Shown here: piece after piece, positions 2,720 through 23,627 of the stretch | Numbering within the stretch: position 1 is the first letter of the stretch | How the letters are laid out: each line of letters opens with the position of its first letter | Assembly: GCA_963826715.1 (NCBI GenBank) | Contig: CAWGYA010000008.1 | Coordinates: forward strand, 768,001 to 832,000 | Source of the DNA: Candidatus Bathyarchaeota archaeon | GTDB lineage: Archaea > Thermoproteota > Bathyarchaeia > Bathyarchaeales > Bathycorpusculaceae | DNA: 64,000 bases | Direction: 5' to 3' | The notes under the pieces: model-generated | Seen by the model: the letters and a program-made list of their open reading frames with translations, nothing else | The model's database searches: none | What the model was told of the DNA's origin: nothing | Position numbers and translations under genes: made by a program

Positions 2720-2723
2720 TTAT

Positions 2724-2993
2724 TTATTTTAGGTTGAAGGGTTTGCCTTCAGAAACAATCTTTGAAGGCGATTGTGCTTTCCATTTTTTGAGGAACGGCA
2801 AATCCTCTGATTCCTTACGCAACTCGTCTGGCAGCATTTCTGGGATTTCGTCGCGTATAGGGTACCATCGTTGGCATTTTGGGCATACAATTAGGCCCTC
2901 CACAATTTCGTCTTTCTCTTCGAAAACATGAAGTTCAAGTGGATGGTATTTATCGATGGGGCATGCGAGGATTTCCATTAGTTTTCGTTTCAT
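2724..2993 (-). CDS. trm112: Trm112 family methyltransferase activator
   Basis: MKRKLMEILACPIDK...CPKCQRWYPIRDEIPEML; ATG at 2993 preferred over the TTG at 3002. Confidence 0.9.
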   Translation of the reverse strand: MKRKLMEILACPIDKYHPLELHVFEEKDEIVEGLIVCPKCQRWYPIRDEIPEMLPDELRKESEDLPFLKKWKAQSPSKIVSEGKPFNLK

Positions 2994-3028
2994 GAGTTTC
3001 AACTATTTAGATTAGGAGGGTTGAGTTA

Positions 3029-3901
3029 TTAAAACTTGCTCGGTACCCGAATAACTTGAACATCGAGGACGGTCTGGTACCAATTCGGGCCTATACTTCG
3101 TACGACTCGGGAATTTGCGAATGTGTAACTGACGCCTAGGCTGTTAAGTTTCGTCGCAACTTTTTGCTTAGTTTTCTCAGTAGGGTCCTCTTTGTTGATA
3201 GTATGCTCAAAATCGTATATGTGAATCCAGCCCCCACTTTTTTTAAGTGCTGAAACCGCGTACGGTAAATACTCAAAGGCTAACTCAGGTAGTGGCATCA
3301 ACACTCGGTCCGCAATTCCCAACAAGTGATTTTCTTCGATTTCTTTAGCATCGCATAGAATTGGTATAACTTGTTCATAGAGACGATTAATTTGTACATT
3401 TTTAACCATTTCTTCGTAGGCGGCTGGATTAAGGTCTATGGAATATATTTTGGTCTGAGGTGAGGTTTTGGCTATAATAATGCTGAAGCAGCCCACACCT
3501 GCGAACATGTTGACAATAGTTTCTCCTGGGGAAACCTGGTGGGCTATTCGTAGTCGTTCATGACTGAGTCTCGGAGAAAAATAGCAATCCTTTATGTTTA
3601 CTGAGAAGACGCACCCTGCCTCTTTATGTTGGGTGCTGGCTTTGTTTTCGCCTGCTAATAATTGAAGTTTTCGGGTTCGGTGATTCCCCTTTACGGGACT
3701 TATCTGGATAAAAACAGTTTTTACGGATTTATGAGTCGCCATTATCTGCTTTGCCACTATCTCCGCGTTTAGACGGTCGCTCCCGAATGTTTTGATGATC
3801 GCTATGTTGCCGATGATGTCAAATGTATTGTATATTTTGTTTAGCTCCTGAGGCGGAATCGCAACAGCAAGCTTTTCTTTGAGGCGAACTCTCAACTGCA
3901 T
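3029..3901 (-). CDS. Trm5/Taw2 (Met-10+) family SAM-dependent tRNA G37-modifying transferase
   Basis: FDIIGNIAII, YFSPRLSHER, MFAGVG SAM motif, DLNP, ADRVLMPLP. Confidence 0.85.
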   Translation of the reverse strand: MQLRVRLKEKLAVAIPPQELNKIYNTFDIIGNIAIIKTFGSDRLNAEIVAKQIMATHKSVKTVFIQISPVKGNHRTRKLQLLAGENKASTQHKEAGCVFSVNIKDCYFSPRLSHERLRIAHQVSPGETIVNMFAGVGCFSIIIAKTSPQTKIYSIDLNPAAYEEMVKNVQINRLYEQVIPILCDAKEIEENHLLGIADRVLMPLPELAFEYLPYAVSALKKSGGWIHIYDFEHTINKEDPTEKTKQKVATKLNSLGVSYTFANSRVVRSIGPNWYQTVLDVQVIRVPSKF

Positions 3902-6662: not shown

Positions 6663-6866
6663 AGCATATAGCTCTCCCAGTTAGGCAGCTAATCATCAAC
6701 TCATGAGTAACTACGAGAGCATTTTAAAGGTTTACCTAAAATTTGAGAAGCAAATCTCTGGAATATTATTCAGCCTCTATTTTTTAATTCATGAAATCTG
6801 CAGCTGGAAATAGGGATTTTTAAATGCCTGTTTTTTCTATGTTACAGAAAGCTCTGGTGTTACCTC

Positions 6867-7829
6867 TTGAATCAAGCTCCTCCATCTCCGCTTTTAGCTT
6901 CTCTAAAAAAACAAAAATATCACCTAATTGGACACCATTCAGCGGTGAAGCGGTGTAAATGGTTGTATGAATCTATAGTTAACAACCGCCCATGTTATAA
7001 ACAGAAGTTTTACGGTATACAAAGTCACCGCTGTATGCAGATGACTCCCTCGCTATATAGCTGTACCCAGCAATGTCTCTTTTGCTGGCGAGCGCAAAGC
7101 GGGGACTTGGACGAACATTGGGATGAAATGCAAAACCCCAACAGAGACACGCCTCAGGAGATTGTCGCGGGCTGTTTTAAGGCGCAGGAAAAAATTATCT
7201 CAGGATACAAGGGAAATGAAAAAACGGATTGGCGCAAATTTCAAGAGGCGCAACGCCCCAATCAAGTTGCAATAAGCTTAACCGGCGAACCCACGCTATT
7301 CGAGTCACTGGGGGAGTTAATTAGCCTTTTCCATCAAAGGGGCGCAACAACTTTTCTGGTGACTAATGGTACGTTGCCCACGAAACTTTCCAGACTCAGT
7401 CAAGACCCCAGCCAGCTTTATGTGTCGCTTTGTGCCCCCAATCAAGAAGTCTACAATAAAGTTTGTCGACCACAGTTTCCTCATGCTTGGGAAAAATTAA
7501 ACGAGACGTTGGGGCTTCTGCAGAGTTTCAGTTGCCCAACCGCTGTCCGTATGACCTTGGTGAAAGACCATAATATGGCTCTTATTGACCAATACGCTAA
7601 GATAGTGGAGAAAGCCAACCCTACTTATATCGAAGCCAAAGCTTACATGCATATAGGATTTTCGAATCTGCGTTTGGGTTTTGATCGCATGCCGATGCAT
7701 CAAGATGTGCAGGTTTTCGCTAAGAATCTTGCTGAGAAAACAGGGTATAAGATCATTAATGAAGCGCCTGAGAGTCGTGTGGTGTTGCTCAGTAGGCTGG
7801 AAAAACCTATCAAAGTCGGCGCCAATTAA
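6867..7829 (+). CDS. taw1: 4-demethylwyosine synthase (radical SAM) Taw1/TYW1
   Basis: HSAVKRCKW, CYKQKFYGIQSHRCMQMTP, CxxxCxxC (CTQQCLFC), ISLTGEPTL, FLVTNG, YIEAKAYM. Confidence 0.95.
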   Translation: MNQAPPSPLLASLKKQKYHLIGHHSAVKRCKWLYESIVNNRPCYKQKFYGIQSHRCMQMTPSLYSCTQQCLFCWRAQSGDLDEHWDEMQNPNRDTPQEIVAGCFKAQEKIISGYKGNEKTDWRKFQEAQRPNQVAISLTGEPTLFESLGELISLFHQRGATTFLVTNGTLPTKLSRLSQDPSQLYVSLCAPNQEVYNKVCRPQFPHAWEKLNETLGLLQSFSCPTAVRMTLVKDHNMALIDQYAKIVEKANPTYIEAKAYMHIGFSNLRLGFDRMPMHQDVQVFAKNLAEKTGYKIINEAPESRVVLLSRLEKPIKVGAN

Positions 7830-8034
7830 GGCCACTACTCGCCTATAAGGGATCAGAAACCTAAAAGGGAACGAGAAAAGTGATGGTTTTACGGGGGTTT
7901 GCATTTTTTTTTAACTGCTATGCGTGATTTTGTGGGGTATATGCTTAACTGGTTTTGGGAAAAACGCTTTTTCAGGGGGTAACGTAAATTAAGTAATTGA
8001 ATCTCTATTTGCATATAAAATTCTTGTGATTATT

Positions 8035-10528: not shown

Positions 10529-12877
10529 TTGACCACTAAAAACGTCCGTGTAAAAATAGACGAAATGAAGACCAACTCTGGTCTCATTAAAAACCTTGAG
10601 TTATCCATTGGCAAAGTTATTAATGACAACTATAATGAGCCGATGGGTCCAACTCCTATGCCCTCTATAACCGCTCTCCGCGATTGGGACATGAAGCTTC
10701 TTAATAAGTACAAGCCTTTCTATATGCCCGATTGCGATTCATGCTGTCTTTGTACTTTTGGTAAATGTGACTTGACAGCTGGAAAACGTGGAGCTTGCGG
10801 TTTAGAAATAGGGGCGCAATCATCCCGTATTGTGATGTTAGCATGTGCAATTGGAGCAGCATGTCACACAGCACACTCAAGGCACTTAGTTCATCATTTG
10901 ATCGAAAAATATGGCCGCAGGTATCCCTTAGATGTCGGCGGATTGAATGTGAAAGTTGAAGCGCCAGTCTGTCGCCTTGTAACTGGTATTAAGCCTGAAA
11001 CACTCGGCGATCTGGATGATATTTTAACTTATACAGAAGAGCAGATTACCCAAATTCTTGCAACTGGACACACCGGTCAAGAAAGCAACAACTTAGACTT
11101 TGAATCGAAAGCACTCCATGTCGGTATGGTTGATCATGTAGGTATGGAAGTTGGCGATATCGCTCAAATTTCAGTATTCGGGTATCCAAAAGCTGACCCT
11201 GAAGCGCCACTCGTAAAACTTGGCATCGGTAGTGTTGACCGCACCAAACCCGTCATTATGTGCATCGGCCACAACGTTGTTCCCTCTATCGGAATAATTG
11301 ACTATGCAAAAGAAACCAAAGTTGATGAAAAAATCGAAGTAGTCGGTTTATGCTGTACAGCCCATGACATGACGCGTTACTACAACCGTGCAAGAGTTGT
11401 TGGTCCAATCAGTTGGGAACTTAGATTCATTCGTGCAGGTTTAGCAGACGTAGTGGTGCTTGATGAACAATGTATCCGAACTGATGTTGCAGAAGAAGCT
11501 GCAAAAGTTAATGCACCAGTTATTGCAGCCTCGGAGAAGAACTGTGTTGGCTTCAAGAATCGTACCAATGATCCAACAGACGAAATAGTTTCTGATCTTG
11601 TCAGTGGCAAAGTCAAAGGTGTTCTAGTTCTTGATCCTGAAAAAGTTGGCGAAGTTGCTGTTCGTGTTGCTCAGGCAGTTGCTCCTGTTCGTAAACGTAA
11701 AACTGTGCTTCCAAGTGCAGAGGAAGTTGTGGCAATTGCTAAGGCTTGCACGCAATGTAAGCAATGTCAACGCAACTGTCCACAGGACCACGCTGTTCCA
11801 GCAGCCATTAAAGCGGCAGCTGCAGGTGATCTCTCACTGTTAACGGACCTCTATGAAGTTTGTATCGGATGCGGAAGATGCGAACAATCGTGCCCACAGA
11901 AAATCATGATACACAGCCTTATCGTTAAAGCAGGCGAAAAATCGATGGAATGCGAAGACAATCTTTGCCGAGTAGGCAGAGGTGCAGTCTCAGACGTCGA
12001 AATCCGCAATGTTGGCAGCCCAATTGTCCTGGGAGAAATCCCTGGCATCGTAGCAGTCATAGGATGCAGTAACTATCCGAAAGGCGGGAAAGACGTTTAT
12101 GATATATGCAGAGAATTCGCTAGCAGACGATACATTGTTGTATTATCCGGCTGTTCTGCCATGTCAGCAGGCAGCTACCGTAATAGCGAAGGCAAAACCC
12201 TGTATGAAGAATTCCCAGGTGGATTTGAAGCAGGAGGAGTCCTCAATGTTGGCTCTTGCGTAGCAAACAGCCACATCGCAGGTGCAGCAATTAAAGTTGC
12301 GAACATCTTCGCAAAACGCCCACTTAGAGGAAACTATGAAGAAATCGCAGACTACATACACAACCGTCTCGGCGCAGTCGGCTTAGCCTGGGGTGCATAT
12401 TCACAGAAGGCAGCTGCAATTGCATCAGGCTTCTGGCGCTTAGGTATACCCGTCTTAGTTGGTCCGCACGGAAGCAAATACAGACGTATGCTCCTTGGCC
12501 GGAAAGAAGACCCGTCAAACTGGGAAGTTCTCGATGCACGCACAGGCGAAACTGTCAACGTTGGTCCCGCGCCAGAACACCTCTTCAACGTATCTGAAAC
12601 CAAAGAAGAATGTATGGTTCAGATCGCAAAACTCTGCATCAGACCTAACGACACCTGGAAAGGGCGCAGCATTAAATTGAGCCACTATGTTGACCTCAGC
12701 AAACGCTACTTAGGCGTCATGCCAAATGATCTGCATCTATTTGTGAGAACAATGGCTGATGTCCCCATGACTATGAAAGATGAATTCGAGAAAATCTTGG
12801 CAGCAAACAACTGGAAAGAAACAGTAATTCCAGATCCAACTCTGCTTCCGAGAATGGTACGGAAAATGAAGGAGTAA
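10529..12877 (+). CDS. cdhA: CO dehydrogenase/acetyl-CoA synthase complex alpha subunit
   Basis: CCLCTFGKC, IGHN, GLCCTAHD, two CxxCxxCxxxCP ferredoxin motifs, GCSN, VGSCVAN; TTG start. Confidence 0.97.
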   Translation: MTTKNVRVKIDEMKTNSGLIKNLELSIGKVINDNYNEPMGPTPMPSITALRDWDMKLLNKYKPFYMPDCDSCCLCTFGKCDLTAGKRGACGLEIGAQSSRIVMLACAIGAACHTAHSRHLVHHLIEKYGRRYPLDVGGLNVKVEAPVCRLVTGIKPETLGDLDDILTYTEEQITQILATGHTGQESNNLDFESKALHVGMVDHVGMEVGDIAQISVFGYPKADPEAPLVKLGIGSVDRTKPVIMCIGHNVVPSIGIIDYAKETKVDEKIEVVGLCCTAHDMTRYYNRARVVGPISWELRFIRAGLADVVVLDEQCIRTDVAEEAAKVNAPVIAASEKNCVGFKNRTNDPTDEIVSDLVSGKVKGVLVLDPEKVGEVAVRVAQAVAPVRKRKTVLPSAEEVVAIAKACTQCKQCQRNCPQDHAVPAAIKAAAAGDLSLLTDLYEVCIGCGRCEQSCPQKIMIHSLIVKAGEKSMECEDNLCRVGRGAVSDVEIRNVGSPIVLGEIPGIVAVIGCSNYPKGGKDVYDICREFASRRYIVVLSGCSAMSAGSYRNSEGKTLYEEFPGGFEAGGVLNVGSCVANSHIAGAAIKVANIFAKRPLRGNYEEIADYIHNRLGAVGLAWGAYSQKAAAIASGFWRLGIPVLVGPHGSKYRRMLLGRKEDPSNWEVLDARTGETVNVGPAPEHLFNVSETKEECMVQIAKLCIRPNDTWKGRSIKLSHYVDLSKRYLGVMPNDLHLFVRTMADVPMTMKDEFEKILAANNWKETVIPDPTLLPRMVRKMKE

Positions 12878-12892
12878 ATGGAGGAGAACTAT

Positions 12893-13438
12893 ATGTCCTG
12901 TGAACCATGGCAATGTGCAGAAATAGCATCAACTAAAAAAGCAAACCCCATCCAAAAGCCCGAGATAGCAGTTGCAATGATCAAAAGAGCCCAACGCCCC
13001 CTTCTTATTGTGGGCAGCAACGTTACTGAACGTTGGATGGAGGGCAAACCAGCAATCGAATACATCATTGACTTTGCAAACGCAAGCAAAGTTCCAGTTG
13101 TAGCAACCGCCCATATGGTGGGCGAATTCATCAAACGCGGTTACCAGCCTGCTGGTTTCATGAATGCAATGGAAATTAGTCAACGCGTCGGCGACCCAAC
13201 CTGGATGGGTCTGGACGGCAAAGGTCACCCAGATCTCGTTATGTATGTTGGTATGCCCTACTATATGGAAGCACTTATTCTATCTGGTCTCAAGCATTTT
13301 GCACCAACGCTCAAAACCATGACTCTTGATAATATGTATCATGTGCATGCTAGCTGGTCTTTTCCCAACGCAACCCTTGAAGAGTGGGCTGTAAATCTCA
13401 AAGTAATGACCTCAAAATTTAATGAAGGAGGAAATTAA
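12893..13438 (+). CDS. cdhB: ACDS epsilon subunit
   Basis: AMIKRAQRPLLIVG, W-GLDGKG-DLV, LSGLKHFAP; GGAGGAG RBS before ATG 12893 (the track uses 12878). Confidence 0.93.
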   Translation: MSCEPWQCAEIASTKKANPIQKPEIAVAMIKRAQRPLLIVGSNVTERWMEGKPAIEYIIDFANASKVPVVATAHMVGEFIKRGYQPAGFMNAMEISQRVGDPTWMGLDGKGHPDLVMYVGMPYYMEALILSGLKHFAPTLKTMTLDNMYHVHASWSFPNATLEEWAVNLKVMTSKFNEGGN

Positions 13439-13440
13439 AA

Positions 13441-14859
13441 ATGTCAATGTTTAAAGATATACCTGTTGAAGTTGGCGTAATATACGAAGGCGAACGTATC
13501 CGAAGAAATGACATGCAAGTAGAGCTCGGCGGACCCACAGTTAAAGAAAAATTTGAACTCGCTAAAGTAAAACCCATGGACCAGGTCGATGATGGCAAAA
13601 TTACCATCATAGGCCCAGACTTAAAAGACCTCAAAGAGGGCGGTGCATATCCGTTCGGCATTCTTGTTGAAGCAGCAGGTGCTAAACTCGATGCGGGTCT
13701 TGAAGGTGTCATTGAAAGGCGCATTCACGGTTACCTCAATTACATTGAGGGCTTCATGCACCTAAACCAGCGTTATGACATTTGGATACGCATCGGCAAA
13801 AAAGCCTTCCAGAAAGGCTTAAACAGCTTTGAGCCAATCGGTAAAGTTCTCTATCGTCTCTTCAAGAGCGAATTGCCAATCATCGAAAAAGTGCAGATAA
13901 CATTCGTAACTGACACTGCTAAACTCAACGAAATGTTCCCAGATGCAGTTCAATCATATGAATCACGCGACGCAAAAGCTCGTGGACTCAAAGACAGTGA
14001 AGTTGACACATTCTATGGTTGCGCTCTATGCCAATCATTCGCACCCAGCCACGTATGCGTTATTACACCCCAACGATACAGCAATTGCGGTGCCATCAGC
14101 TGGTTTGACGGCAAAGCCTCAGCAAGCATCGACCCGAAAGGTCCAGTTTTTGCAATTCCAAGAGGCGAAATGATTAATGAAGAAAAAGGCGAATTCACCG
14201 GTGTTAACGAAGCAGCAAAGAAACGTAGCATGGGCGAAGTTAACAAAGTCTGGCTTTATACAGCCTTTGATCACCCACACACTTCATGTGGATGCTTCGA
14301 AGCAGTAGCTTTCTACATCCCAGAAGTTGACGGCTTAGGCATAGTACAACGTAACTTCAAAGGCGCAACGGTAAACGGCTTGCCCTTCAGTACCATCGCA
14401 GACTCTGCGGCAGGTGGACGTCAAATTGACGGATTCCATGGTATGTCCATCGAGTATATGCGAAGCAAGAAATTCTTTGCAGCAGACGGTGGATGGAACC
14501 GCATCGTTTGGGTGCCTAAAGAAGTAAAAGATCGCGTTAAAGAATTCATCCCGGCAGAAATCGTTGATAAAATTGCAACTGAAGAAGATGCAAAGAATGT
14601 TGAAGAACTCCAAGCTTTCCTGAAAGCAAAGAATCATCCAGTGGTTGCAAAATGGGAAGCAGAAGCAGCTCCAGAAGCCCAAGAAACGTCCGTTGTACAG
14701 GTATCTGAGGAAGCAGCAGGTACTATGATGCCAGTTATGTCTGCAGGTACAATGCCAATCATGGCTGGTGGCTTTAAGATAATTCTTAAAGACGCAAAGA
14801 TCTATGCAAACAAAGTTATCATTCAAACCCTCGACAAAGACGGCAAAGACAAACGGTGA
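13441..14859 (+). CDS. cdhC: ACDS beta subunit (acetyl-CoA synthase)
   Basis: YEGERIR, ERRIH, FYGCALCQSF, HTSCGCFE A-cluster ligands. Confidence 0.97.
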   Translation: MSMFKDIPVEVGVIYEGERIRRNDMQVELGGPTVKEKFELAKVKPMDQVDDGKITIIGPDLKDLKEGGAYPFGILVEAAGAKLDAGLEGVIERRIHGYLNYIEGFMHLNQRYDIWIRIGKKAFQKGLNSFEPIGKVLYRLFKSELPIIEKVQITFVTDTAKLNEMFPDAVQSYESRDAKARGLKDSEVDTFYGCALCQSFAPSHVCVITPQRYSNCGAISWFDGKASASIDPKGPVFAIPRGEMINEEKGEFTGVNEAAKKRSMGEVNKVWLYTAFDHPHTSCGCFEAVAFYIPEVDGLGIVQRNFKGATVNGLPFSTIADSAAGGRQIDGFHGMSIEYMRSKKFFAADGGWNRIVWVPKEVKDRVKEFIPAEIVDKIATEEDAKNVEELQAFLKAKNHPVVAKWEAEAAPEAQETSVVQVSEEAAGTMMPVMSAGTMPIMAGGFKIILKDAKIYANKVIIQTLDKDGKDKR

Positions 14860-14865
14860 TTCTTT

Positions 14866-16092
14866 ATGACTCACCACGACACAGACAAAAAGAAAGAAGC
14901 TGACGGGCTACAGCTCAGTGAAGAGCTCTTGGCGGCCCTGGCTAAATTCAAGCAAATAGAGCTTGAAGATTTCCAGATGGACGTTAAAGATCTCGAAATA
15001 ATCTTTGAGCCAGGAATGGCTGGGCAAATTATGCCTAAACTGAAGCTTCCCACAGCTATTGCAGGCGGCAAACCTGTTAGTATGCTTTCAAGAGCTTTCA
15101 TGCCTCCAGTTGAGAAATACGTTAACACAATCAGTACAGTCAAACTTGGCGCAACTAAAAGCGAAGGCGGCACACGCGGTAAAACCTACACTATCGGCGG
15201 AGAGCTCTCTCCTGCTTTCTATACTTTTGAGAACTCTATCCCGCACAAGCCAATTGTTACCTTAGACGTTTTCGATATGGAAGTTCCCCTATCCAAAGCG
15301 GTTAAGATGCACGTTAAAGAAGTCGTCGGCGACCCAGCAGCTTGGGCAAAACTTGCGGTCGAAAAGTTCGGCGCAGATATGGTAACAATGCACCTAATCA
15401 GTGTTGACCCCTTGTTAAAGGATGCATCACCCAAAGACGCATGCAAAACCATCGAAAAAGTATTGCAAGCAGTTGATGTACCACTTGTAATCGGTGGATG
15501 TGGTGACCCAGTTAAAGACACCGCGCTATTCGAAGAAGTGTGTGCACAATTTCCAGGTGAACGCTTTCTCATAAGTTCAGTCACTCGCGACATGGATGTT
15601 GACAAATGCGGCGAATTCATCAAGAAATCAGGTCATGCAGTTCTCGCATTTACACCAATGGATCTTAATTTTGCACGCGAATTAAACCGGCACCTCTTTG
15701 ATCACTTAACACGCGAAGACATCATTATGGACTTAACAACCGCAGCTTTAGGTTACGGTTTAGACTATGCTTTTACTAACATGGAACGTGCACGTATCGG
15801 CGGATTAATGGGTGATGTTGAATTGGCGCAACCTATGTCTTCTGGTACAACTAATGCATGGGCAGCCCGTGAAGCTTGGCTTAAGATGTCAGCTGATTGG
15901 GAACCCCGCGAGCTTAGAGGTCCACTTTGGGAAGTCACAACTGCACTCACTCTGTTAACGGCAGGTGTGGATTTGTTCATGATGATGCACCCCGCAGCCG
16001 TCAAAACCCTCAAAGACGTAATCAACTACCTGACAGCTAACAAGAAAGCCGACCCAGCAAAGTTTCTTGATTGGGTCAAGGTAAAGGCTTAA
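14866..16092 (+). CDS. cdhD: ACDS delta subunit (corrinoid Fe-S protein small subunit)
   Basis: LGATKSEGGTRG, AVDVPLVIGG-GDP, ALGYGLDY, GTTNAWAAREAW, MMHP. Confidence 0.96.
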   Translation: MTHHDTDKKKEADGLQLSEELLAALAKFKQIELEDFQMDVKDLEIIFEPGMAGQIMPKLKLPTAIAGGKPVSMLSRAFMPPVEKYVNTISTVKLGATKSEGGTRGKTYTIGGELSPAFYTFENSIPHKPIVTLDVFDMEVPLSKAVKMHVKEVVGDPAAWAKLAVEKFGADMVTMHLISVDPLLKDASPKDACKTIEKVLQAVDVPLVIGGCGDPVKDTALFEEVCAQFPGERFLISSVTRDMDVDKCGEFIKKSGHAVLAFTPMDLNFARELNRHLFDHLTREDIIMDLTTAALGYGLDYAFTNMERARIGGLMGDVELAQPMSSGTTNAWAAREAWLKMSADWEPRELRGPLWEVTTALTLLTAGVDLFMMMHPAAVKTLKDVINYLTANKKADPAKFLDWVKVKA

Positions 16093-16098
16093 GGAGCG

Positions 16099-17532
16099 AT
16101 GACTGATATGGCAGAAAAGAAAAAAGGCGGAATAAAAGAACTCAGTCCAATAGCTATCTACAAGAATTTACCCAAAACTAACTGCAAAGAATGCGGTCAA
16201 GACAACTGCATGGCATTCGCTACAAAAATTGTCAACCGTGAAGTCGAACTCGAAGCATGCAAGCCAGTGCTAAAACCGGAATTCGCAAAACAGTATGCTA
16301 CACTAAAAGATATGCTCAAACCAGCTGTTAAAGAAGTAACCATCGGTGTTGGAGAGAAAGCTAAGAAAATCGGCGGCAAACTTGTCATGTACCGCCATGA
16401 GCTTACCTACAAGAATCCAACAGCAATAGCTATCGACGTAACTGACGAAATGCCTGAAAACGAACTTGTCGCCCGTGTACAAAAGACTGAAAATTTCAGC
16501 TTTGAATACATTGGTAACACCCTCAAACTTGACATGATTGCAGTTCGATGCACCTCTGACGATGCCGACAAATTCAAGGTATGCGTTAAGAAGGTCTCCG
16601 AAGCCACCAAACTACCCTTAATACTCTGCTCTATGAACCCTCAAATCATGGAAGCAGGCATTATGGCAGCACCCAAAGTACGCCCACTTCTGTATGCAGC
16701 AACTACAGCAAACTGGAAAGAAATGGCTGAACTCGCAATTATGTACGATGCCCCGCTGGTTGCCTCATCACCAAATGACCTAAACAGTCTCGTCTCATTA
16801 GCAAAGACTCTGCAAGATTATGGCGTTAAAGACATAGTTCTTGATCCAGGCACTTTTGCAAACGAAGGTCTGCAAGACACAATCAACAATTTCACAATGC
16901 TACGACGCGCAGCCACCAAAGCCGGCGATGACTTAGCTGGCTTACCTCTATTGGGGGTTCCAATGGCAGCTTGGGCTAACAAAGGTGAAACCGCAGACGA
17001 CCTAATCAAATGGCGCGAATCATACATCGCATCAATGCTAATTGTCCGCTATGCAGACGCACTCATTATGCACGGCAACGACGGCTGGTCATTACTTCCG
17101 CTTGTAGTTCTACGCCAAAACATTTACACCGACCCGCGCAAACCCGTCGCAGTTGCACCAGGCCTAAAAATCTACGGCACCCCAGACGAGAACTCACCTG
17201 TCATGTTCACCTCAAACTTCGCATTAACCTTCTACACCGTAGCCTCAGACATCGAAAGCAACAAACTAAATGCATACCTAATCGTTGTAGACGCAGAAGG
17301 CAGTGCAATCGACAGCGGAGTTGCAGGACGAAAACTCACAGCTGAGAAAATTGCGGATGCAATCAAAACCTCAGGTATCGAAAGCAAAGTTAAGCATCGC
17401 GTAATCATCAGTCCAGGAAAGGCATCCCGTATCAGCGGTGAAATCGAGGAACTCAGTGGCTGGAAAGTTCAAGTTGGACCACGCGACAGCAGTGAGATAC
17501 CTAAATACATAATCGATAAATGGCAACCATAA
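16099..17532 (+). CDS. cdhE: ACDS gamma subunit (corrinoid Fe-S protein large subunit)
   Basis: LPKTNCKECG-NCMAFA Fe-S motif, RQNIYTDP, TSNFALT, W-V-VGPRDSS. Confidence 0.96.
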   Translation: MTDMAEKKKGGIKELSPIAIYKNLPKTNCKECGQDNCMAFATKIVNREVELEACKPVLKPEFAKQYATLKDMLKPAVKEVTIGVGEKAKKIGGKLVMYRHELTYKNPTAIAIDVTDEMPENELVARVQKTENFSFEYIGNTLKLDMIAVRCTSDDADKFKVCVKKVSEATKLPLILCSMNPQIMEAGIMAAPKVRPLLYAATTANWKEMAELAIMYDAPLVASSPNDLNSLVSLAKTLQDYGVKDIVLDPGTFANEGLQDTINNFTMLRRAATKAGDDLAGLPLLGVPMAAWANKGETADDLIKWRESYIASMLIVRYADALIMHGNDGWSLLPLVVLRQNIYTDPRKPVAVAPGLKIYGTPDENSPVMFTSNFALTFYTVASDIESNKLNAYLIVVDAEGSAIDSGVAGRKLTAEKIADAIKTSGIESKVKHRVIISPGKASRISGEIEELSGWKVQVGPRDSSEIPKYIIDKWQP

Positions 17533-17590: not shown

Positions 17591-17787
17591 GCTTGGTTTT
17601 CTAGATTTTGGTGATTTTTGTTGGGTTGGTTCAGCATCTTTATTTGAGTTGTTCGTATGTCTCAACCCTGACTTGCTTTAACGTTTCTTGTGTTAAAATT
17701 ACCATAGGTTTTACTTAAATTTGTACTAAAAATTGATAAACCCCCCTTGTTTACTACATGCTTACTTAACGCGAGAAGGGAATAAAA

Positions 17788-19269
17788 ATAGGCTGCGGCA
17801 TCTTTGGTGCAATAAATTATGAAAGTCAACCCGTTTTCCCTTATATTTACTGGGGACTAAGGGCACAGAATCATCGAGGTCACCAATCGCATGGTTTCCT
17901 CACTTTCAATAATAAACAATATTTTACCTATAAAAACCTCGACCTTGTGCCGAAAGTTAAAAGCACCGCAATAACTGAATGGTTTGGGCGATTGCCTGGA
18001 CATATAGGCATAGGAAATGTTCGCTATACCACATCAGGCAAATGTGATGAAGTTTCTATACTCCAAGGCACACAACCAGTCACAGCCTCGGTGGATGGAA
18101 TCAAACTTGCGCTATCCTTCAATGGCAATATTGTGAACACTTTGCCACTTAAGAAAGAGATGAGCGAGAATTTTTCTGATTTCTACTATAACTGCGATTC
18201 TGATATCGTCTGCCACAAAATGTTACTAGCCCTCAAGCAGGGAAAAGATTTGGCGGAGGCGGCAAGGTACGTTATGGAAAGCCTAGATGGCGCGTTTTCT
18301 GTAACAGGAATAACAGGTGAGGGTGACTTTTTTGCTTTCAAAGATCCTCATGGCATAAAGCCCCTTTGTGCTGGACATGATCCTGAAGGCAAAACCTTAG
18401 CTTTTTCCTCCGAGACAGTAAGTCTTGACATGAACAGTTTTGTGCGTGATTTTGAATTAAATCCTGGAGAATTCGTGCTGGCTACCAAAGATGGCTTTAA
18501 GCGAAGCCAACTTATTAACAATCCCCGTCCAGCTTTCTGTGCTTTTGAATATGCTTACTTCGCTAGACCTGACTCACGCTTTGACGGCAAATATGTTTAT
18601 GAAATCCGCGAGGATTTTGGACGTAACATCGTAAAAGAAAACCCTGAAGTGGTTAAAGACGGTGACATTATCATGTCGGTGCCAGAAACCGGTGATGACT
18701 CCGCGATGGGGGTCCATGAAGAGTCAGGATTGCGGTGGGAACGTGCTTCTAGGCGGCATCGCTATGTTACTGAACGTGCCTTCATTTTGCTTAATCTGGA
18801 ACGGTATTCGACGATTGATAAAAAAATCAACATTTTAGGTCCCAAAGTTAAAGATAAACGTGTTATCATCACTGAAGACAGCGTAGTCCGGGGTGACACA
18901 ACCAAAGTTATAATCGAAAAGATGCGCAAGGCAGGTGCCAAAAAGGTCTATGTTTTTGTGACTTTTCCCCGCATTATAGGACCCTGTTTCTATGGCATCG
19001 ACATGTCTAGTTACGGGCAACTTATCGGCTCCCGCAACAACTCTGAAGAGATCGCTAAAATTATTGGAGCCGACGGTGTTTGTTACCAATCCATTGAGAG
19101 CTTAATTCACGCTACAGGGCAGACCGAGGATCAACTTTGTTTAGCCTGCATTACTGGTAAATATCCTACACCGTGTGCTCAGAGGATGGCTGATGCCATG
19201 AAGAGACGCTTCATAGAAGGCTATGAAGAGAAAGGCAGAATTTATGAGAACGAAGAGTCTCAGCCGTAA
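17788..19269 (+). CDS. purF: Amidophosphoribosyltransferase (Fe-S type); frame extends upstream of the track's GTG and apparently starts at ATA
   Basis: In-frame upstream translation (ATA)-G-CGIFG...QNHRGHQS from 17788; CAFEYAYFARPDS, EDSVVRGDT, CFYGIDM, CLACITGKYP; in-frame TAA at 17767-17769 with no ATG/GTG/TTG before the Cys codon. Confidence 0.92.
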   Translation: MGCGIFGAINYESQPVFPYIYWGLRAQNHRGHQSHGFLTFNNKQYFTYKNLDLVPKVKSTAITEWFGRLPGHIGIGNVRYTTSGKCDEVSILQGTQPVTASVDGIKLALSFNGNIVNTLPLKKEMSENFSDFYYNCDSDIVCHKMLLALKQGKDLAEAARYVMESLDGAFSVTGITGEGDFFAFKDPHGIKPLCAGHDPEGKTLAFSSETVSLDMNSFVRDFELNPGEFVLATKDGFKRSQLINNPRPAFCAFEYAYFARPDSRFDGKYVYEIREDFGRNIVKENPEVVKDGDIIMSVPETGDDSAMGVHEESGLRWERASRRHRYVTERAFILLNLERYSTIDKKINILGPKVKDKRVIITEDSVVRGDTTKVIIEKMRKAGAKKVYVFVTFPRIIGPCFYGIDMSSYGQLIGSRNNSEEIAKIIGADGVCYQSIESLIHATGQTEDQLCLACITGKYPTPCAQRMADAMKRRFIEGYEEKGRIYENEESQP

Positions 19270-19317
19270 TTGCTTTAAGCGTTCCCTCACAGAATAGTGC
19301 AGTAACGGTGTATCTGG

Positions 19318-20733
19318 ATGGAAAAGACAGGTGTACTCTTGGTTTCTTATGGCGCACGAGAAGTCGCAATGGCAGATGCGCTTCTTCGCAGTCCAAACCA
19401 TCAAGTTGAGCTCTATGTTGCTGACAAACAACGCAATCCGTTTAACGCCAAACATGCCACTAAACACGTGGTAATTCCTGGTCTTGATGTGCATGAAATT
19501 TGTAAATTCGCGCAAACTAACAAGGATCATCTTGATTTTGTTTTAGTAGGATCTGAGAATCCAATAATTAAAGGCATTCGGGACCTCATTGAAGAGAAAG
19601 TCGGCATACCTGTTATATGCCCAAAAAAAGCTTATGCCATTGAAGAGAGCAAAGTTGCTCAACGTCTGCTCTTTGAGGAGATTGCTCCGGAAGCTAATCC
19701 CAGATTTCAAGTTTTTGACCCTGCAAACTACAACTCAACTTCTGATGTTAAATCTGCTGTCTACAAGTGGCTAGATGAGCTTGATAATCAAGCTGTTGTG
19801 AAACCGGATAGACCTGCCTTGGGCAAGGGTGTGGGTGTTTGGGGTGATCATTTTGCTAGCCGAGAGGAGCTTTTTGATCATTTTCTCTCCAGCTTCAAAT
19901 TTGGCTCCGTTCTTATCGAGGAGAAAGTGCCAGGTGAGGAATCTAGTTGCATGGGCTTTTCTGATGGTAAACACTTTATTCCTTTGCCTGATACTCGCGA
20001 CTATAAACGTGCCTTCAACGGTGATCAAGGTCCGAACACCGGTGGAATGGGTTCCTATAAGGATAGTGAAGATTACTTGCCGTTTCTCACTTTGGCTGAT
20101 CGTGAAGCAGAATTGGCGTTAGCCAATAGAGTGTTTTGTGGTTGGAAAAAGAAAATTTCAGATGATACTGCTCTTCGGGGTGTGCCGCTTTATCTTGCTT
20201 TCATGCATACGGGTAGAGGCATTAAGATTTTGGAAATCAACAGTCGCCCGGGTGATCCTGAAATCATGAACCTCCTACCCGTTATCGAAGATGACTTTGT
20301 TGATGTTTGTCTTAAAATGGTGGAAGGGAACTTGATGGGTGTTGCAATGGAGCAGGCGGCGACGGTTTTAACCTACAAGGTTCCAGCAGATTACGGTGGA
20401 TACGCAAATGTTTACCCCACTTTGGTGGATAAAATCGCTGTTGATAGTCCAGTTGATCTGTCCAAGGCTGAAGCGTTGACAAAGAAATATGGCGACAACA
20501 TTCGCATCTATCCGGGCTCAATGGAAGTTCGTGGTGGTAAAAATTATGCCCTGAAATCCCGTGCTATAGGTCTTTTGGGGATCGGTGATTCTATTGAGGA
20601 AGCTCGCCAAATCAGCCAGGAGGGTGCTAAGGCCATAAGTGGTGGGGCGCTTTGGAACCGAACTGACATCGCTACAGGGCAGCATATTTCTAAAAGTATC
20701 CGTCACATGGAGCAACTGAGATGCAAAGCATAA
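19318..20733 (+). CDS. purD: Phosphoribosylamine-glycine ligase
   Basis: GAREVA, IEESK, VVKP...GKGV, DYKRAFNGDQGPNTGGMGSY, EINSRPGDPE. Confidence 0.95.
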   Translation: MEKTGVLLVSYGAREVAMADALLRSPNHQVELYVADKQRNPFNAKHATKHVVIPGLDVHEICKFAQTNKDHLDFVLVGSENPIIKGIRDLIEEKVGIPVICPKKAYAIEESKVAQRLLFEEIAPEANPRFQVFDPANYNSTSDVKSAVYKWLDELDNQAVVKPDRPALGKGVGVWGDHFASREELFDHFLSSFKFGSVLIEEKVPGEESSCMGFSDGKHFIPLPDTRDYKRAFNGDQGPNTGGMGSYKDSEDYLPFLTLADREAELALANRVFCGWKKKISDDTALRGVPLYLAFMHTGRGIKILEINSRPGDPEIMNLLPVIEDDFVDVCLKMVEGNLMGVAMEQAATVLTYKVPADYGGYANVYPTLVDKIAVDSPVDLSKAEALTKKYGDNIRIYPGSMEVRGGKNYALKSRAIGLLGIGDSIEEARQISQEGAKAISGGALWNRTDIATGQHISKSIRHMEQLRCKA

Positions 20734-21812
20734 AGAAAATTGTTGTTTCGGACTGTGAGGGTCCAATATCTAAAAATGATAATGCCTATGAACTTTCGGC
20801 GCATTTCATTCCAGATGGAGATAAACTCTTTGCTAACATAAGCAAGTATGATGATGTTCTTGCAGAGGTGCTGCATAGGCCAAATTATGCTGCGGGTAGT
20901 ACTCTGAAGCTGATTTTGCCTTTCTTTAAAGCCTATGATGCGACTGATCGGCAAATCGAGGATTATTCAGCCCAAAACATCCTTCTTATCCCACAAACAA
21001 AAGATACTATTAGGCACATGCAGGAGTACGCCGAAGTGTTCATCGTCAGCACAAGCTATGTGCACTACATAAATGCCCTCTGCAAAGCGATTGATTTTCC
21101 AATTAACCACACATATTGCACAAAAGTAGCTCTCGACGCCTATAGTATAACGCCTGAGGAGAAGGTGCTTTTAAAGGAGATTGGGACAGAAATCTCTAAA
21201 ATGCCTCTCATCGAAATACCTGTCAACGCGAAAACTGAGGCTGATTTTTCAGATGCCGATCAAGCATTAATCAAGCGGTTAGACGAAATCTTTTGGGAAA
21301 TACTTCCTAAATTGAGTGTGGGTAAATTGCTTTCTGAAGTAAAGACGGTGGGTGGCGAACAGAAGGCTGAAGCCATCAAGGATGTTGTAAATCGGTTAGG
21401 CATGAGGTTCTCTGAAGTCATGTATGTTGGTGATAGTATAACAGATGTTGAAGCCTTTAAGTTGGTGCGCAAGTTTGGTGGGTTAGCTGTGTCTTTTAAT
21501 GGCAACAGTTATGCTGTTCGGAACGCCGATGTCGCTATAATGTCTGAGGGTAACTTGGTTACGGCTTTGCTTGCTGATCGCTTCTGTAGACTTGGAAAAG
21601 AGCAAACATTAAAGGCGCTTTCATATTGGTGTAAATCTGCGGTTGAACAGAGTGGCGTAAGTATTGATCTTTTAAGGCAGCTCTATGCGATTTATCCTGG
21701 GGCGCTTCCCAGAGTTGAATTGGTAACGTTGCATAATGTTGATGGTCTTGTTAGGGAGAGTGCTGAATTCCGCAGAACTGTTAGAGGAGTAGCAATAGGG
21801 AGACTTGGATAA
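20721..21812 (+). CDS. HAD-superfamily phosphohydrolase, COG4030 / 'EhaR'-like
   Basis: Motif I variant SDCEGP, ISKYDD-LA...Y-AG-TLKL-LPF, IVSTSY, YVGDSITD, AVSFNGN-YA; overlaps purD by 13 bp. Confidence 0.8.
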   Translation: MQSIKKIVVSDCEGPISKNDNAYELSAHFIPDGDKLFANISKYDDVLAEVLHRPNYAAGSTLKLILPFFKAYDATDRQIEDYSAQNILLIPQTKDTIRHMQEYAEVFIVSTSYVHYINALCKAIDFPINHTYCTKVALDAYSITPEEKVLLKEIGTEISKMPLIEIPVNAKTEADFSDADQALIKRLDEIFWEILPKLSVGKLLSEVKTVGGEQKAEAIKDVVNRLGMRFSEVMYVGDSITDVEAFKLVRKFGGLAVSFNGNSYAVRNADVAIMSEGNLVTALLADRFCRLGKEQTLKALSYWCKSAVEQSGVSIDLLRQLYAIYPGALPRVELVTLHNVDGLVRESAEFRRTVRGVAIGRLG

Positions 21813-21813
21813 A

Positions 21814-22719
21814 ATGGACAATAAAATTGATGATACGTTTATTGAAGCCTTTGCTGGAATATTTTGTCGCGTAATTGTAACTGCAGATGACGAGGAAACC
21901 GTCCGTAAAGCTGCTGAAGACTCAACTTCTACTCCGTCGGTTGTTATAGGTAGAACTGAGGGCGGCGTAGAAAAATACTTATCTGAAAAACAAACCCCTG
22001 ATGGACGCAAAGGGGCTATTCTTCAGTTCTGGGGTGGAATTAATCCCAAGAAAACTTTTTCTGAGTCGCTTAAAAAGTTTGAAATGGAGCTTTCTTATCG
22101 AATTCGTCAAGATATTCTGGTTAAGCCGTTCACAGCTGTTTACGATGCTCTTCCCCGAGCCGAGGGCAAGTTTGATATGATGGAGCGTGTTGGGCATTGT
22201 GGTGATGGTTTTGAATGGGTTGAAACGCGGTATGGTAGAGAAGTTATAGTTGTGCCTTTGATGGTTCCGGATTTTGTCATCGAACATTATATTGGTTATG
22301 CCCAGGGTGTGATGGGGGGTAACTTTTGGATTATGTGCTCCACAAAAGAAGCGCTTAAACAAGCGGGAAATAAAGCCCTAAAGGCTATTCATAAGGTATA
22401 TGGTGCAGTAACAACTTTTGACATATGTTCTGCAGGTTCAAAACCCGAAACCCACTTCCTGCAAATCGGGCCCACAACTAACCAATTTTACTGTCCTTCG
22501 CTCAAGGCTCGTTTGGGAAAAGAATCCCAGGTTCCTGACGGCGTTAAATATATCGCTGAAATCGTTTACGATGGTCTATCTTTAGATGCAGTTAAAGAAG
22601 CTACCAAAGTAGGCATCAAAGCAGTTCTTGATGTTGAGGGTGTGGTGCGGGTTTCTGCAGGTAATTATGGTGGCAAACTAGGTCAATATAAGATACGGTT
22701 GAGTGAGTTGTTTGTATGA
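21814..22719 (+). CDS. Formylmethanofuran:tetrahydromethanopterin formyltransferase-like protein (divergent Ftr paralogue, 'EhaS'-like)
   Basis: IDDTFIEAF, TPDGR-GA, GDGFE, GV-GGNF, SAGNYGGKLG; non-canonical TSTPSVVIGRTEGG and RIRQDILVKP; ATG 1 nt after the HAD stop. Confidence 0.85.
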   Translation: MDNKIDDTFIEAFAGIFCRVIVTADDEETVRKAAEDSTSTPSVVIGRTEGGVEKYLSEKQTPDGRKGAILQFWGGINPKKTFSESLKKFEMELSYRIRQDILVKPFTAVYDALPRAEGKFDMMERVGHCGDGFEWVETRYGREVIVVPLMVPDFVIEHYIGYAQGVMGGNFWIMCSTKEALKQAGNKALKAIHKVYGAVTTFDICSAGSKPETHFLQIGPTTNQFYCPSLKARLGKESQVPDGVKYIAEIVYDGLSLDAVKEATKVGIKAVLDVEGVVRVSAGNYGGKLGQYKIRLSELFV

Positions 22720-23627
22720 CAAAGTTTGATGTAATTGGTTTTGGTGCACTCAACATTGACACACTTTTAAAAGTAGACAAGATTGCAGGTGCCGAGGAAG
22801 AGAGCTTTATCCGTGACTACACTGAAGCATGTGGTGGTTCAGCAGCTAACACAATAGTTGGCTTGGCTAGATTGGGTTGTAACGTAGGTTTTGTAGGCAA
22901 AGTTGCTGATGACCCTGAGGGGCAACTTCAAATTGACTGCTTCAAAGCTGAAGGCGTGGACACTGACGGTCTTATTCATTCGGCAAAAGGCAAAAGCGGT
23001 GTCTGCTTGGGGTTTGTTGACAAGAAAGGTGCGCGTGCACTCTATATCAACCCCGGGGTCAACGATTCAATAGAATTTCGAGAGTTAAAATCCACATATA
23101 TTTCTCAAACCCAAATCCTGCATCTATCGTCCTTTGTTGGAGAAAAATCTTTCAGATCGCAAAAGAAGCTCTTGAGCTATCTACCTGACGGCATAAAAAT
23201 CAGCTTTGATCCAGGTGCCCTATACGCTCAGAGAGGCTTTGCAGCTATTGAACCAATCATTCAAAATTCTTTTGTTATGATGCCTAACTCTCTTGAACTT
23301 GAACTAATAACTGGTGAAAGTGACATACCTAAAGGCGCTGAATTGCTGCTTGGTATGGGTGTTAAAATTGTCGCTGTCAAACTTGGTGCCAAAGGATGCT
23401 ACGTTACCAACGGTCAAGAGAAGGGCATAGTAGGACCCTTCAAAGTCCAAGCGGTTGATACAACTGGCGCTGGAGATGCCTTTAATGCAGGTTTCCTGTA
23501 TGGTCTACTTAACGATAAGGCTCTCTTCGAATGTGGCAGATTGGGTAATTTTGTTGCTTCTAGAAGCGTAATTAGGATGGGGGCTCGGGAAGGCTTGCCG
23601 CACAAAGAGGATTTATCAAGAGTCTAG
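22716..23627 (+). CDS. PfkB/ribokinase-family carbohydrate or nucleoside kinase ('EhaT'-like)
   Basis: GGSAANT, FDPG, VKLGAKG, DTTGAGDAFNAGF; ATGA overlap with the Ftr-like gene. Confidence 0.92.
   Translation: MTKFDVIGFGALNIDTLLKVDKIAGAEEESFIRDYTEACGGSAANTIVGLARLGCNVGFVGKVADDPEGQLQIDCFKAEGVDTDGLIHSAKGKSGVCLGFVDKKGARALYINPGVNDSIEFRELKSTYISQTQILHLSSFVGEKSFRSQKKLLSYLPDGIKISFDPGALYAQRGFAAIEPIIQNSFVMMPNSLELELITGESDIPKGAELLLGMGVKIVAVKLGAKGCYVTNGQEKGIVGPFKVQAVDTTGAGDAFNAGFLYGLLNDKALFECGRLGNFVASRSVIRMGAREGLPHKEDLSRV

Follow-up and report, generated by a model that had tools for sequence, protein, structure and literature searches.

A HAD–Ftr2–PfkB gene trio behind purF and purD in a Bathyarchaeial genome as a candidate module for the formylation of glycinamide ribonucleotide

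The window analysed here is a stretch of 64,000 nucleotides from Candidatus Bathyarchaeota archaeon (assembly GCA_963826715.1, contig CAWGYA010000008.1, positions 768,001 to 832,000 of the forward strand). It contains an operon in which purF and purD, the genes of the first two steps of purine synthesis, are followed by three genes that encode a hydrolase of the HAD superfamily (HAD), a divergent paralogue of the formyltransferase Ftr (Ftr2) and a kinase of the PfkB family (PfkB). These three proteins are proposed to form a module that supplies the third step of the pathway, the conversion of glycinamide ribonucleotide (GAR) to formylglycinamide ribonucleotide (FGAR), a reading to which a probability of about 85% is given. 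The proposal is based on the position of the trio between purD and purL, on its near-exclusive complementarity to the known step-3 enzymes PurN and PurT in three phyla, and on the exchange of Ftr2 for a PurN-type protein, here written PurN*, together with FolD. An earlier note on this DNA, made from the sequence alone, had put forward the trio as a purine module for GAR formylation; comparative genomics supports this view, and none of the computational refutation tests that were run went against it. The genes of the operon are as follows.

17788-19269, + strand: purF, amidophosphoribosyltransferase (step 1); TIGR01134 at 315 bits (cut-off 350), GATase_6 and GATase_7 domains
19318-20733, + strand: purD, GAR synthetase (step 2) of a divergent subtype; GARS_N, GARS_A and GARS_C domains, TIGR00877 at 233.6 bits (cut-off 288)
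20721-21812, + strand: HAD-superfamily hydrolase of 363 residues, proposed GAR 5'-phosphatase; C-terminal HAD motifs, homologue of PDB 1Y8A
21814-22719, + strand: Ftr2, divergent Ftr paralogue of 301 residues in a separate clade, proposed step-3 formyltransferase; PF01913 and PF02741
22716-23627, + strand: PfkB-family, ribokinase-like kinase of 303 residues, proposed 5'-kinase on the formylated riboside; PF00294, E 8e-54

This five-gene order and the tight junctions described before are borne out by the open reading frames (ORFs), by domain scans and by direct reading of the sequence. The purD and HAD genes overlap by 13 nucleotides, the TAA stop of HAD ends at 21812 and the ATG of Ftr2 starts at 21814, leaving a gap of a single nucleotide, and the Ftr2 and PfkB genes overlap as ATGA.

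The lack of purN and purT, noticed at first for the window, extends to the whole genome, whose assembly comprises 2.64 Mb in 8 contigs and is 96% complete. The Formyl_trans_N domain (PF00551) has no match genome-wide and purN was thus not found, while the purT model returned only ATP-grasp noise that did not exceed 43 bits (cut-off 502). PurH was likewise not found in the genome. Moreover, the genome search recovered a second Ftr, of the canonical type, at a distance on the same contig as the operon, so that the check suggested in the note (a separate canonical ftr, with purN and purT missing) gave the expected outcome. FwdA, two tandem purP genes and two Prs genes are also encoded. With purP and FwdA present and PurN, PurT and PurH not found, the folate-free purine pathway would be complete but for step 3. 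A role of PfkB and HAD in the supply of phosphoribosyl pyrophosphate (PRPP) was considered as well and is ruled out by the two Prs genes, with which this supply requires no additional genes.

The association of the trio with purine genes is conserved across Bathyarchaeia, where 20 loci picked to cover 50–77% identity were compared, plus 80 loci from named species genomes. Each of the 20 diverse loci has HAD, Ftr2 and PfkB in this order; purD adjoins the trio in 18 of them, and purF does so too in most. Among the named loci, 56 of 80 show exactly purF-purD-HAD-Ftr2-PfkB, and in 69 both purD and HAD lie beside Ftr2. Together with 3 of 20 Asgard loci, these counts answer the question of whether the linkage to pur genes is unique to this genome, which it is not. 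The related-locus search over named genomes returned Bathyarchaeia-like loci only.

The remaining named loci are mostly contig ends or split BLAST hits, but two long loci do depart from the pattern. In one of them (L119), Ftr2-PfkB lies beside purL and purQ. In the other (L111, 9854-11019), part of a 2.7-Mb chromosome that bears the label 'Euryarchaeota archaeon', Ftr2 has as neighbours only a 42-residue fragment of the HAD C-terminal end and a 43-residue fragment of the PfkB N-terminal end, and the locus is either a relic or a chimera. Several other loci have peculiarities of their own. In L047, a contig of 21,969 bases carries two complete copies of the operon in head-to-head orientation, which probably reflects a palindrome created during assembly. 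In L037 (G052), the HAD match begins at residue 110 within an open frame of 604 residues, purF runs on the opposite strand and lacks residues 1–100, and no purD was found; this operon may be decaying or rearranged. Finally, L108 and L118 are short contigs with a Bathyarchaeia-like Ftr2 (73–74% identity) that are binned in metagenome-assembled genomes of Desulfobacterales and Thorarchaeota, probably through binning contamination; they served here solely as an entry to the two phyla.

In the window, the operon lies directly downstream of another gene cluster:

10529-17532, + strand: cdhABCDE, operon of carbon monoxide dehydrogenase/acetyl-CoA synthase (by Pfam), given as context only and outside the module

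This neighbourhood raises the alternative that Ftr2 is a second Ftr isoenzyme of the Wood–Ljungdahl pathway beside cdh, and that HAD and PfkB are unrelated neighbours. The link to the Wood–Ljungdahl operon drawn in the earlier note holds as local adjacency, since cdh adjoins purF in 27 of the 80 close-relative loci, but it does not extend to the diverse set, where cdh adjacency occurs in none of the 20 loci against the 18 with adjacent purD. The protein itself retains much of an Ftr. It matches PF01913 (146.1 bits, E 1e-43) and PF02741 (178.6 bits, E 1e-53), both over their full length, and it exceeds the cut-off of the NCBIfam Ftr subfamily model NF002554 (329.5 versus 297). Against the fhcD equivalog TIGR03119, it scores 233, under the cut-off of 292.6, and falls short of orthology with characterised Ftr/FhcD. 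An AlphaFold model computed from a 14-sequence alignment has a predicted local distance difference test value (pLDDT) of 87.6 and template modelling (TM) scores of 0.86–0.87 to 1M5S, 1FTR and 1M5H. The catalytic Glu is retained as E249, which is invariant in the 14 aligned Bathyarchaeial Ftr2 sequences, pairs with the E of VYEIV in 1FTR and is present in 90% or more of the sequences in either class (33 Ftr2 and 17 canonical Ftr, or Ftr1, sequences); its counterpart in Methanopyrus kandleri Ftr is E245 by our own count from the alignment. In FhcD, the glutamate that stabilises the oxyanion is E252, according to the accessible text of PMC6926001.

Nevertheless, Ftr2 forms a class of its own. When 131 Bathyarchaeial and 151 Asgard genomes were searched with Ftr2, the matches fell into two separate classes, the first with 46–100% identity and 226 bits or more and the second not exceeding 43% identity and 197 bits. 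In a quick IQ-TREE tree of 55 sequences, run with no bootstrap, Ftr1 and Ftr2 are separated with a value of 100 in the SH-like approximate likelihood ratio test (SH-aLRT), which settles in favour of a separate clade the question of whether Ftr2 groups with canonical Ftr. Both unusual motifs quoted earlier for Ftr2, TSTPSVVIGRTEGG and RIRQDILVKP, are found in the translation. Nine positions are fixed differently in Ftr1 and Ftr2 (A30L, I44V, A50G, G98R, F129C, W145I, L218I, A220P and Y248P), of which three are losses of an aromatic residue (F129C, W145I, Y248P) and one adjoins the catalytic Glu. As judged from sequence, these class-specific changes hint at a remodelled substrate site. Compared with Ftr/FhcD of known structure (1FTR, 1M5H, 1M5S and 6S6Y; about 35–38% identity), Ftr2 has both Pfam domains, the fold and the catalytic Glu in common, whereas it differs in its separate clade, in an insertion of about nine residues and in its pur rather than C1 (one-carbon) pathway context. 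In addition to this divergence, the strict co-occurrence of Ftr2 with HAD and its replacement in place by PurN* and FolD, both described below, speak against the isoenzyme, which is considered highly improbable in spite of the kept fold, the subfamily score and the adjacent cdhABCDE. An Atlas search with Ftr2 returned generic Ftr clusters only.

The tree contains, moreover, a third small Ftr clade on the Ftr1 side (L158, L164, L169, L170), which is made up of one Bathyarchaeon and several Asgards, the latter then with three Ftr genes.

The distribution of Ftr2 over the 131 surveyed Bathyarchaeial genomes is complementary to that of PurN- and PurT-like genes, as expected from the anticorrelation that had been proposed as a check:

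Ftr2 present (52 genomes): PF00551 or PurT-like match in 2, neither in 50
Ftr2 absent (79 genomes): PF00551 or PurT-like match in 61 (50 with PF00551, 11 PurT-like), neither in 18

All 52 Ftr2-bearing genomes carry HAD as well. For the 18 genomes with none of these three genes, no purD was found in 14 listed genomes and one unlisted genome; three genomes without Ftr2, PF00551 and PurT-like matches (G041, G050 and G095) clearly retain purD. Switches occur even within families, with Ftr2, PurT and PurN types in one of them (f11) and Ftr2 and PurN* types in another (f21).

Further evidence comes from five Bathyarchaeia (G002, G010, G028, G034 and G124) that carry HAD without Ftr2, all of them with a PF00551 match. 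In three (G034, G028 and G124), the gene order is purF-purD-PurN*-HAD-PfkB-FolD, and in the other two (G002 and G010), purD-PurN* and HAD/PfkB-FolD lie on different contigs or at a distance of some 12 kb from each other. These PurN* loci are displacements of Ftr2 in place. FolD makes 10-formyl-tetrahydrofolate (10-formyl-THF), so that in this operon Ftr2 has been exchanged for a donor system of the folate type, with HAD and PfkB retained.

PurN* is a protein of about 270–330 residues that is common to Bathyarchaeia and Desulfobacterota at 41–49% identity (for example, 6359-7204 on the - strand of L178 and 2638-3456 on the + strand of L211). Its best model is PurN, which the Bathyarchaeial copies (278–330 residues) match with 51–75 bits against a cut-off of 150. 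It carries an insert of about 10–25 residues and a longer C-terminus, and it is always found together with HAD. Its N-terminal loop reads FS[ST]GRDxAAR, versus SG[RN]G[ST]N in the canonical PurN of the same phyla; this latter type of loop presumably holds the phosphate of GAR in E. coli PurN. In the source databases, PurN* goes under several names (PurN, formyltransferase family protein, hypothetical protein). It retains the His and Asp that are named as catalytic in Brown 2011 (PMC3261824).

The module is not restricted to archaea. A lead from the Atlas pointed to Thermodesulfobacteriota, and 301 genomes of Desulfobacterota were surveyed. A HAD homologue with 32–53% identity is present in 74 of them, one of which represents a Bathyarchaeia-like contaminant contig, leaving 73 true cases. 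In 20 fetched HAD loci, the arrangement is PfkB-PurN*-HAD in nine, PurN*-HAD in two, HAD with PfkB in four and HAD alone in five. Canonical PurN, for which a threshold of E <= 1e-30 was set in this group, is encoded by 159 of the 301 genomes, yet by 0 of the 73 true HAD genomes versus 158 of the 227 others. A PurT-like gene was absent in all five HAD-bearing Desulfobacterota tested for it, and PF00551 detected in the same five genomes only proteins of 316–357 residues (148–167 bits), which are taken to be Fmt, and matches of 38–91 bits that include the PurN* type.

In the third group, 151 Asgard genomes were surveyed and 20 loci fetched. A gene of the Ftr2 clade is found in 29 genomes and HAD in 25, all of which carry Ftr2, whereas HAD is found in none of the 122 Asgards without Ftr2. 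PurT-like genes occur in three of the 151 genomes, none of them with Ftr2. By context, the fetched loci divide into three pur operons, five loci of a group A, eleven of a group B and one other (L150). Among the pur operons, L152 has the order purF-purD-HAD-Ftr2-PfkB-purL-purQ, with the trio placed between purD and purL, and L142 and L149 read purQ-purL-purF-purD-Ftr2. Group A consists of small genomes with no PurN, in which Ftr2 lies near a ModE-like gene, and group B is a long-branch Ftr2 subclade with a different gene context; in both groups, HAD is located elsewhere, inside purF-(purD)-HAD-PfkB operons.

Two kinds of neighbouring genes recur at these Asgard loci. After Ftr2 in L142 and L149, whose genomes are without HAD, follows a deacylase of the M20 ArgE/DapE family (495-1781, - strand, and 6679-7968, - strand, respectively). 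The ModE-like gene of group A (HTH_1 and TOBE domains; for example, 6460-7035 on the + strand of L133) lies just upstream of Ftr2, directly so in L138 and L143 and at a distance of one or two ORFs in L133, L134 and L136.

The two accompanying proteins are divergent members of large families. Known models match only the C-terminal HAD motifs of the hydrolase, which the earlier note had labelled COG4030-type, and every NCBIfam match lies under its cut-off, the best being HAD-IB with 35.4 (cut-off 45). The protein is a homologue of PDB 1Y8A (E 2.7e-31, residues 9–301), which is AF1437 of Archaeoglobus fulgidus, the only solved relative; both have the motif I DxEGP in common, while the identity is low and the PDB title assigns no function to AF1437 (hypothetical protein). 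Motif I thus reads DxE in place of DxD, and the catalytic motifs D11 (in DxEGP), S110, K215 and GDSITD (G237–D242) do not vary across the 29 archaeal and bacterial sequences compared. No longer (fusion) proteins containing HAD were found, which is weak evidence by the search's own rating. PfkB, in turn, matches PF00294 with 183.4 bits (E 8e-54) and reaches 167.1 bits with the ribokinase equivalog TIGR02152, under the cut-off of 299.65; its best solved relative scores only 100.6 bits. With ribokinase and the nucleoside kinases of the PfkB family, it has in common the fold, the N-terminal N/D pair, GG..N and TGAGD, and the motifs GGSxxN (G40, G41) and TGAGD (T250–D254) are invariant in 28–29 archaeal and bacterial sequences. 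Ribokinase 1VM7, however, reads GGKGAN where PfkB here reads GGSAAN, and the Lys of GGKGAN is presumably a ribose contact. A complex prediction for HAD with PfkB from separate alignments scored 0.00, which is evidence neither way.

PurD also varies with the type of step 3. In HAD-type genomes, its GARS_A match begins at model position 12–49 (mostly 18–40) with 84–130 bits, except in G031 (2–194, 163 bits), while in most PurN/PurT genomes it is full length with 140–243 bits; six of the latter (family f15, G049 and G054) have GARS_A scores that resemble the HAD type. To go by these sequence differences, the substrate of PurD might also be different in genomes with the HAD module.

Because HAD and PfkB accompany both types of formyl donor, their target would be the acceptor side, the purine substrate, rather than the carrier of the C1 unit. 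Kinases of the PfkB family phosphorylate primary hydroxyls. GAR offers no free primary hydroxyl unless it is dephosphorylated, and a cycling of the phosphate is, thus, the simplest scheme that is not futile. In this scheme, HAD would first remove the 5'-phosphate of GAR. Subsequently, Ftr2 would formylate the glycinamide amine of the resulting riboside with a formyl group from a methanofuran (MFR) or tetrahydromethanopterin (H4MPT) carrier, and finally PfkB would restore the 5'-phosphate with ATP, yielding FGAR for PurL at a net cost of one ATP, equal to that of PurT. The donor could be either formyl-MFR, with GAR in the H4MPT site, or N5-formyl-H4MPT, in which case the amine of the glycinamide would play the part of methanofuran's aminomethyl group. 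In the alternative form of the module, in some Bathyarchaeia and many Desulfobacterota, PurN* (often with FolD) would take the place of Ftr2. Indirect support for phosphate cycling is provided by the fact that HAD and PfkB travel with either Ftr2 or PurN*, in archaea and in bacteria. This full mechanism, in which the 5'-phosphate is removed and then restored, stands at roughly even odds, and the wider claim of a multi-enzyme step-3 route with phosphate cycling and either Ftr-type or PurN*-type formylation in both Archaea and Bacteria is, by a little, the more tentative of the two.

The proposed route can be set against the two known enzymes. With PurN (EC 2.1.2.2), it would have in common the same step by means of a carrier-bound formyl group, and PurN* fills the same operon slot. 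However, the fold of Ftr2 is unrelated, its donor would presumably be MFR- or H4MPT-bound formyl instead of 10-formyl-THF, and canonical PurN has no accompanying HAD and PfkB. Like PurT, the module would carry out a folate-independent step 3 for one ATP, whereas PurT needs only one protein, an ATP-grasp enzyme with free formate as its substrate, whose sequence is unrelated to all three proteins of the trio.

A number of observations weigh against the module as described, and some of them favour a different division of labour, in which Ftr2 or PurN* formylates GAR itself while HAD and PfkB are accessory, for salvage or repair of dephosphorylated intermediates or for flux control. A phosphatase and a kinase on one pathway carry the risk of a futile cycle, and PurL already pulls FGAR forward with ATP. 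Ftr2 occurs without HAD in four Asgards (G146, G157, G168 and also G234); in G146 and G168, it is seen inside a purQ-purL-purF-purD-Ftr2 operon with no HAD in the genome. HAD is, thus, either not always needed or replaced by a substitute enzyme, and the PfkB family is too broad to trace orthologues in HAD-less Asgards. In the tree, moreover, the Ftr2 of G146 and G168 nests among HAD-linked Ftr2, and the invariant Arg98 gained specifically by the Ftr2 class (G98R) could, from its sequence position, bind the phosphate of GAR directly. Canonical PurN is also present in 12 of the 29 Ftr2-bearing Asgards, and these belong to subclade B, where 12 of 15 genomes (eight of the eleven fetched, plus G237, G243, G267 and G270, which were assigned to the subclade by identity only) are PurN-positive and carry Ftr2 and HAD as well; HAD is kept beside purD there (L175) despite canonical PurN in most genomes. 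Against the accessory role stands the finding that HAD is almost never seen apart from Ftr2 or PurN* (in none of 122 Asgards, 74 Bathyarchaeia and 158 PurN-bearing Desulfobacterota), a pattern that an accessory function in the general pathway would not predict, as well as the adjacent or overlapping arrangement of the trio across two domains of life and the lack of the canonical N-terminal loop in PurN*. An accessory role of HAD and PfkB is, on balance, judged unlikely, though it deserves more weight than the other alternatives.

The complementarity on which the proposed step-3 function relies has weak points of its own. Two Ftr2-bearing Bathyarchaeia have weak matches to the alternative enzymes (G130, PF00551 with 79 bits; G001, PurT-like with 175 bits). 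Many of the Bathyarchaeial PF00551 matches are not canonical PurN (42–93 bits), a full-length and canonical-looking PurN of more than 110 bits being present in only about 15 of the 51 PF00551-bearing Bathyarchaeia, and all the Bathyarchaeial PurT-like matches lie under the NCBIfam cut-off. In addition, related genomes are not independent, so that the genome counts given here overstate the evidence. In the 20 Desulfobacterota loci, the flanks of the trio vary and contain no pur genes. This last observation would suit another explanation, namely that the trio formylates a different ribosyl-amine, or makes a cofactor such as methanopterin or methanofuran or a modified nucleoside, and that its proximity to pur genes reflects shared precursors such as PRPP. 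Several steps of methanopterin synthesis do involve ribosyl phosphates, and the cotranscription of the Methanothermobacter genes with a hydrogenase operon, considered below, points in the same direction. Nevertheless, such an explanation is improbable, given that the module works with two kinds of formyltransferase, one of the MFR/H4MPT type and one of the folate type with FolD, which speaks against the making of one particular cofactor, that in three phyla its presence complements that of PurN and PurT, that the trio of Asgard locus L152 stands between purD and purL, and that the five trio-bearing Desulfobacterota tested have no other step-3 candidate.

The chemistry of the donor is a further difficulty for a GAR formylation by Ftr2. 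N10-formyl-H4MPT, the formyl-H4MPT species named in Brown 2011 (PMC3261824), is not regarded there as a functional formyl donor, and the transfer between formyl-H4MPT and furfurylamine is near neutral, with +4.4 kJ/mol toward methylofuran according to the part of PMC6926001 available. In Methanosphaera stadtmanae, purine C8 derives from C2 of acetate (Brown 2011, PMC3261824, as far as its accessible text goes), a labelling that would fit a pterin-bound C1 unit as well as folate.

The gap that the module would fill has been described before. The available passages of Brown 2011 (PMC3261824) report the GAR formyltransferase as missing in Archaeoglobi, Methanobacteriales and M. kandleri. In those of Chadwick 2022 (PMC9012536), Ftr2 is reported in group 1 of the anaerobic methanotrophic archaea (ANME-1), Archaeoglobales, M. 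kandleri and Methanothermobacter, and PurN and PurT are reported as lacking in ANME-1, Archaeoglobales and Methanobacteriales; the same passages do not tie this lack to Ftr2. No paper linking Ftr2, HAD or PfkB to purine synthesis was found in the literature searched, which lacks most subscription journals.

A special case is Methanothermobacter, in which, as the accessible text of Kaster 2011 (PMC3087415) has it, ehaS and ehaT are cotranscribed with ehaA-R. The earlier note had stated that EhaR, EhaS and EhaT belong to the same three families as the trio and that several methanopterin-using archaea lack both purN and purT. The second of these statements agrees with the available parts of Brown 2011 (PMC3261824) and Chadwick 2022 (PMC9012536), whereas the assignment of EhaR to the HAD family was reached only through an Atlas cluster auto-named EhaR that resembles HAD with a score of 0.98 and counts as a lead only. 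The three Methanothermobacter genes differ from the present trio in that they end a hydrogenase operon instead of following purF-purD; Methanobacteriales, on the other hand, resemble this genome in being without purN and purT, according to the accessible passages of Brown 2011 (PMC3261824).

On the ground of this cotranscription, the trio could be regarded as accessory subunits of an Eha-type energy-converting hydrogenase. However, the part of Kaster 2011 (PMC3087415) that is available calls EhaS and EhaT hydrogenase subunits on cotranscription alone, and the trio is found in Bathyarchaeia, Asgards and Desulfobacterota within pur operons or by itself. In none of the annotated fetched loci does it lie inside an energy-converting hydrogenase operon, and, as the earlier note had said of the window, no hydrogenase genes were seen among the 30 window ORFs annotated. 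A function as hydrogenase subunits is extremely improbable and was rejected, the trio being without hydrogenase genes in the loci examined.

The locus, thus, represents a concrete candidate for the step-3 enzyme that has been unnamed in Archaeoglobi, Methanobacteriales and Methanopyrus since 2011 (PMC3261824, in its accessible part). If the proposal is true, the missing GAR formyltransferase would be named also for ANME-1, a gap repeated in the available text of Chadwick 2022 (PMC9012536), and the methanofuran/methanopterin C1 pool would feed purine C8 directly, bypassing free formate and folate. Moreover, EhaR, EhaS and EhaT would be reassigned from unexplained 'hydrogenase subunits' to a function in purine synthesis, and the anaplerotic hydrogenase Eha would be tied to the drain of formyl-MFR into purines. 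Thousands of genes labelled Ftr, 'HAD hydrolase' or 'ribokinase' would then need renaming, and the passage through a dephosphorylated intermediate would constitute a new pathway logic.

A few observations concern the operon's first gene and its surroundings. The earlier note placed purF from 17788; the gene itself stands, while the start does not hold as an ordinary one, as the codon at this position is ATA, a non-standard start codon. No ATG, GTG or TTG occurs from the stop at 17767-17769 to the codon of the catalytic Cys. In the alignment, the ATG of an orthologue from the same genus (L021) stands opposite the ATA at 17788, and the other five purF orthologues compared have a leader of 6–8 residues ahead of the Cys. 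Either purF starts from a near-cognate codon here, or a base of the sequence is in error.

The operon is flanked by cdhABCDE upstream and by a convergent ORF downstream. Before cdhA, the segment 8026-10392 of the window encodes two P-loop ATPases of the CbiA/ParA type and a flavodoxin, and the two ATPases are probably nickel-insertion accessory proteins. From about position 24000 on, the G+C content drops from 0.43–0.46 to about 0.33–0.38, in a region that contains RmlD-like, glycosyltransferase and further envelope-sugar genes.

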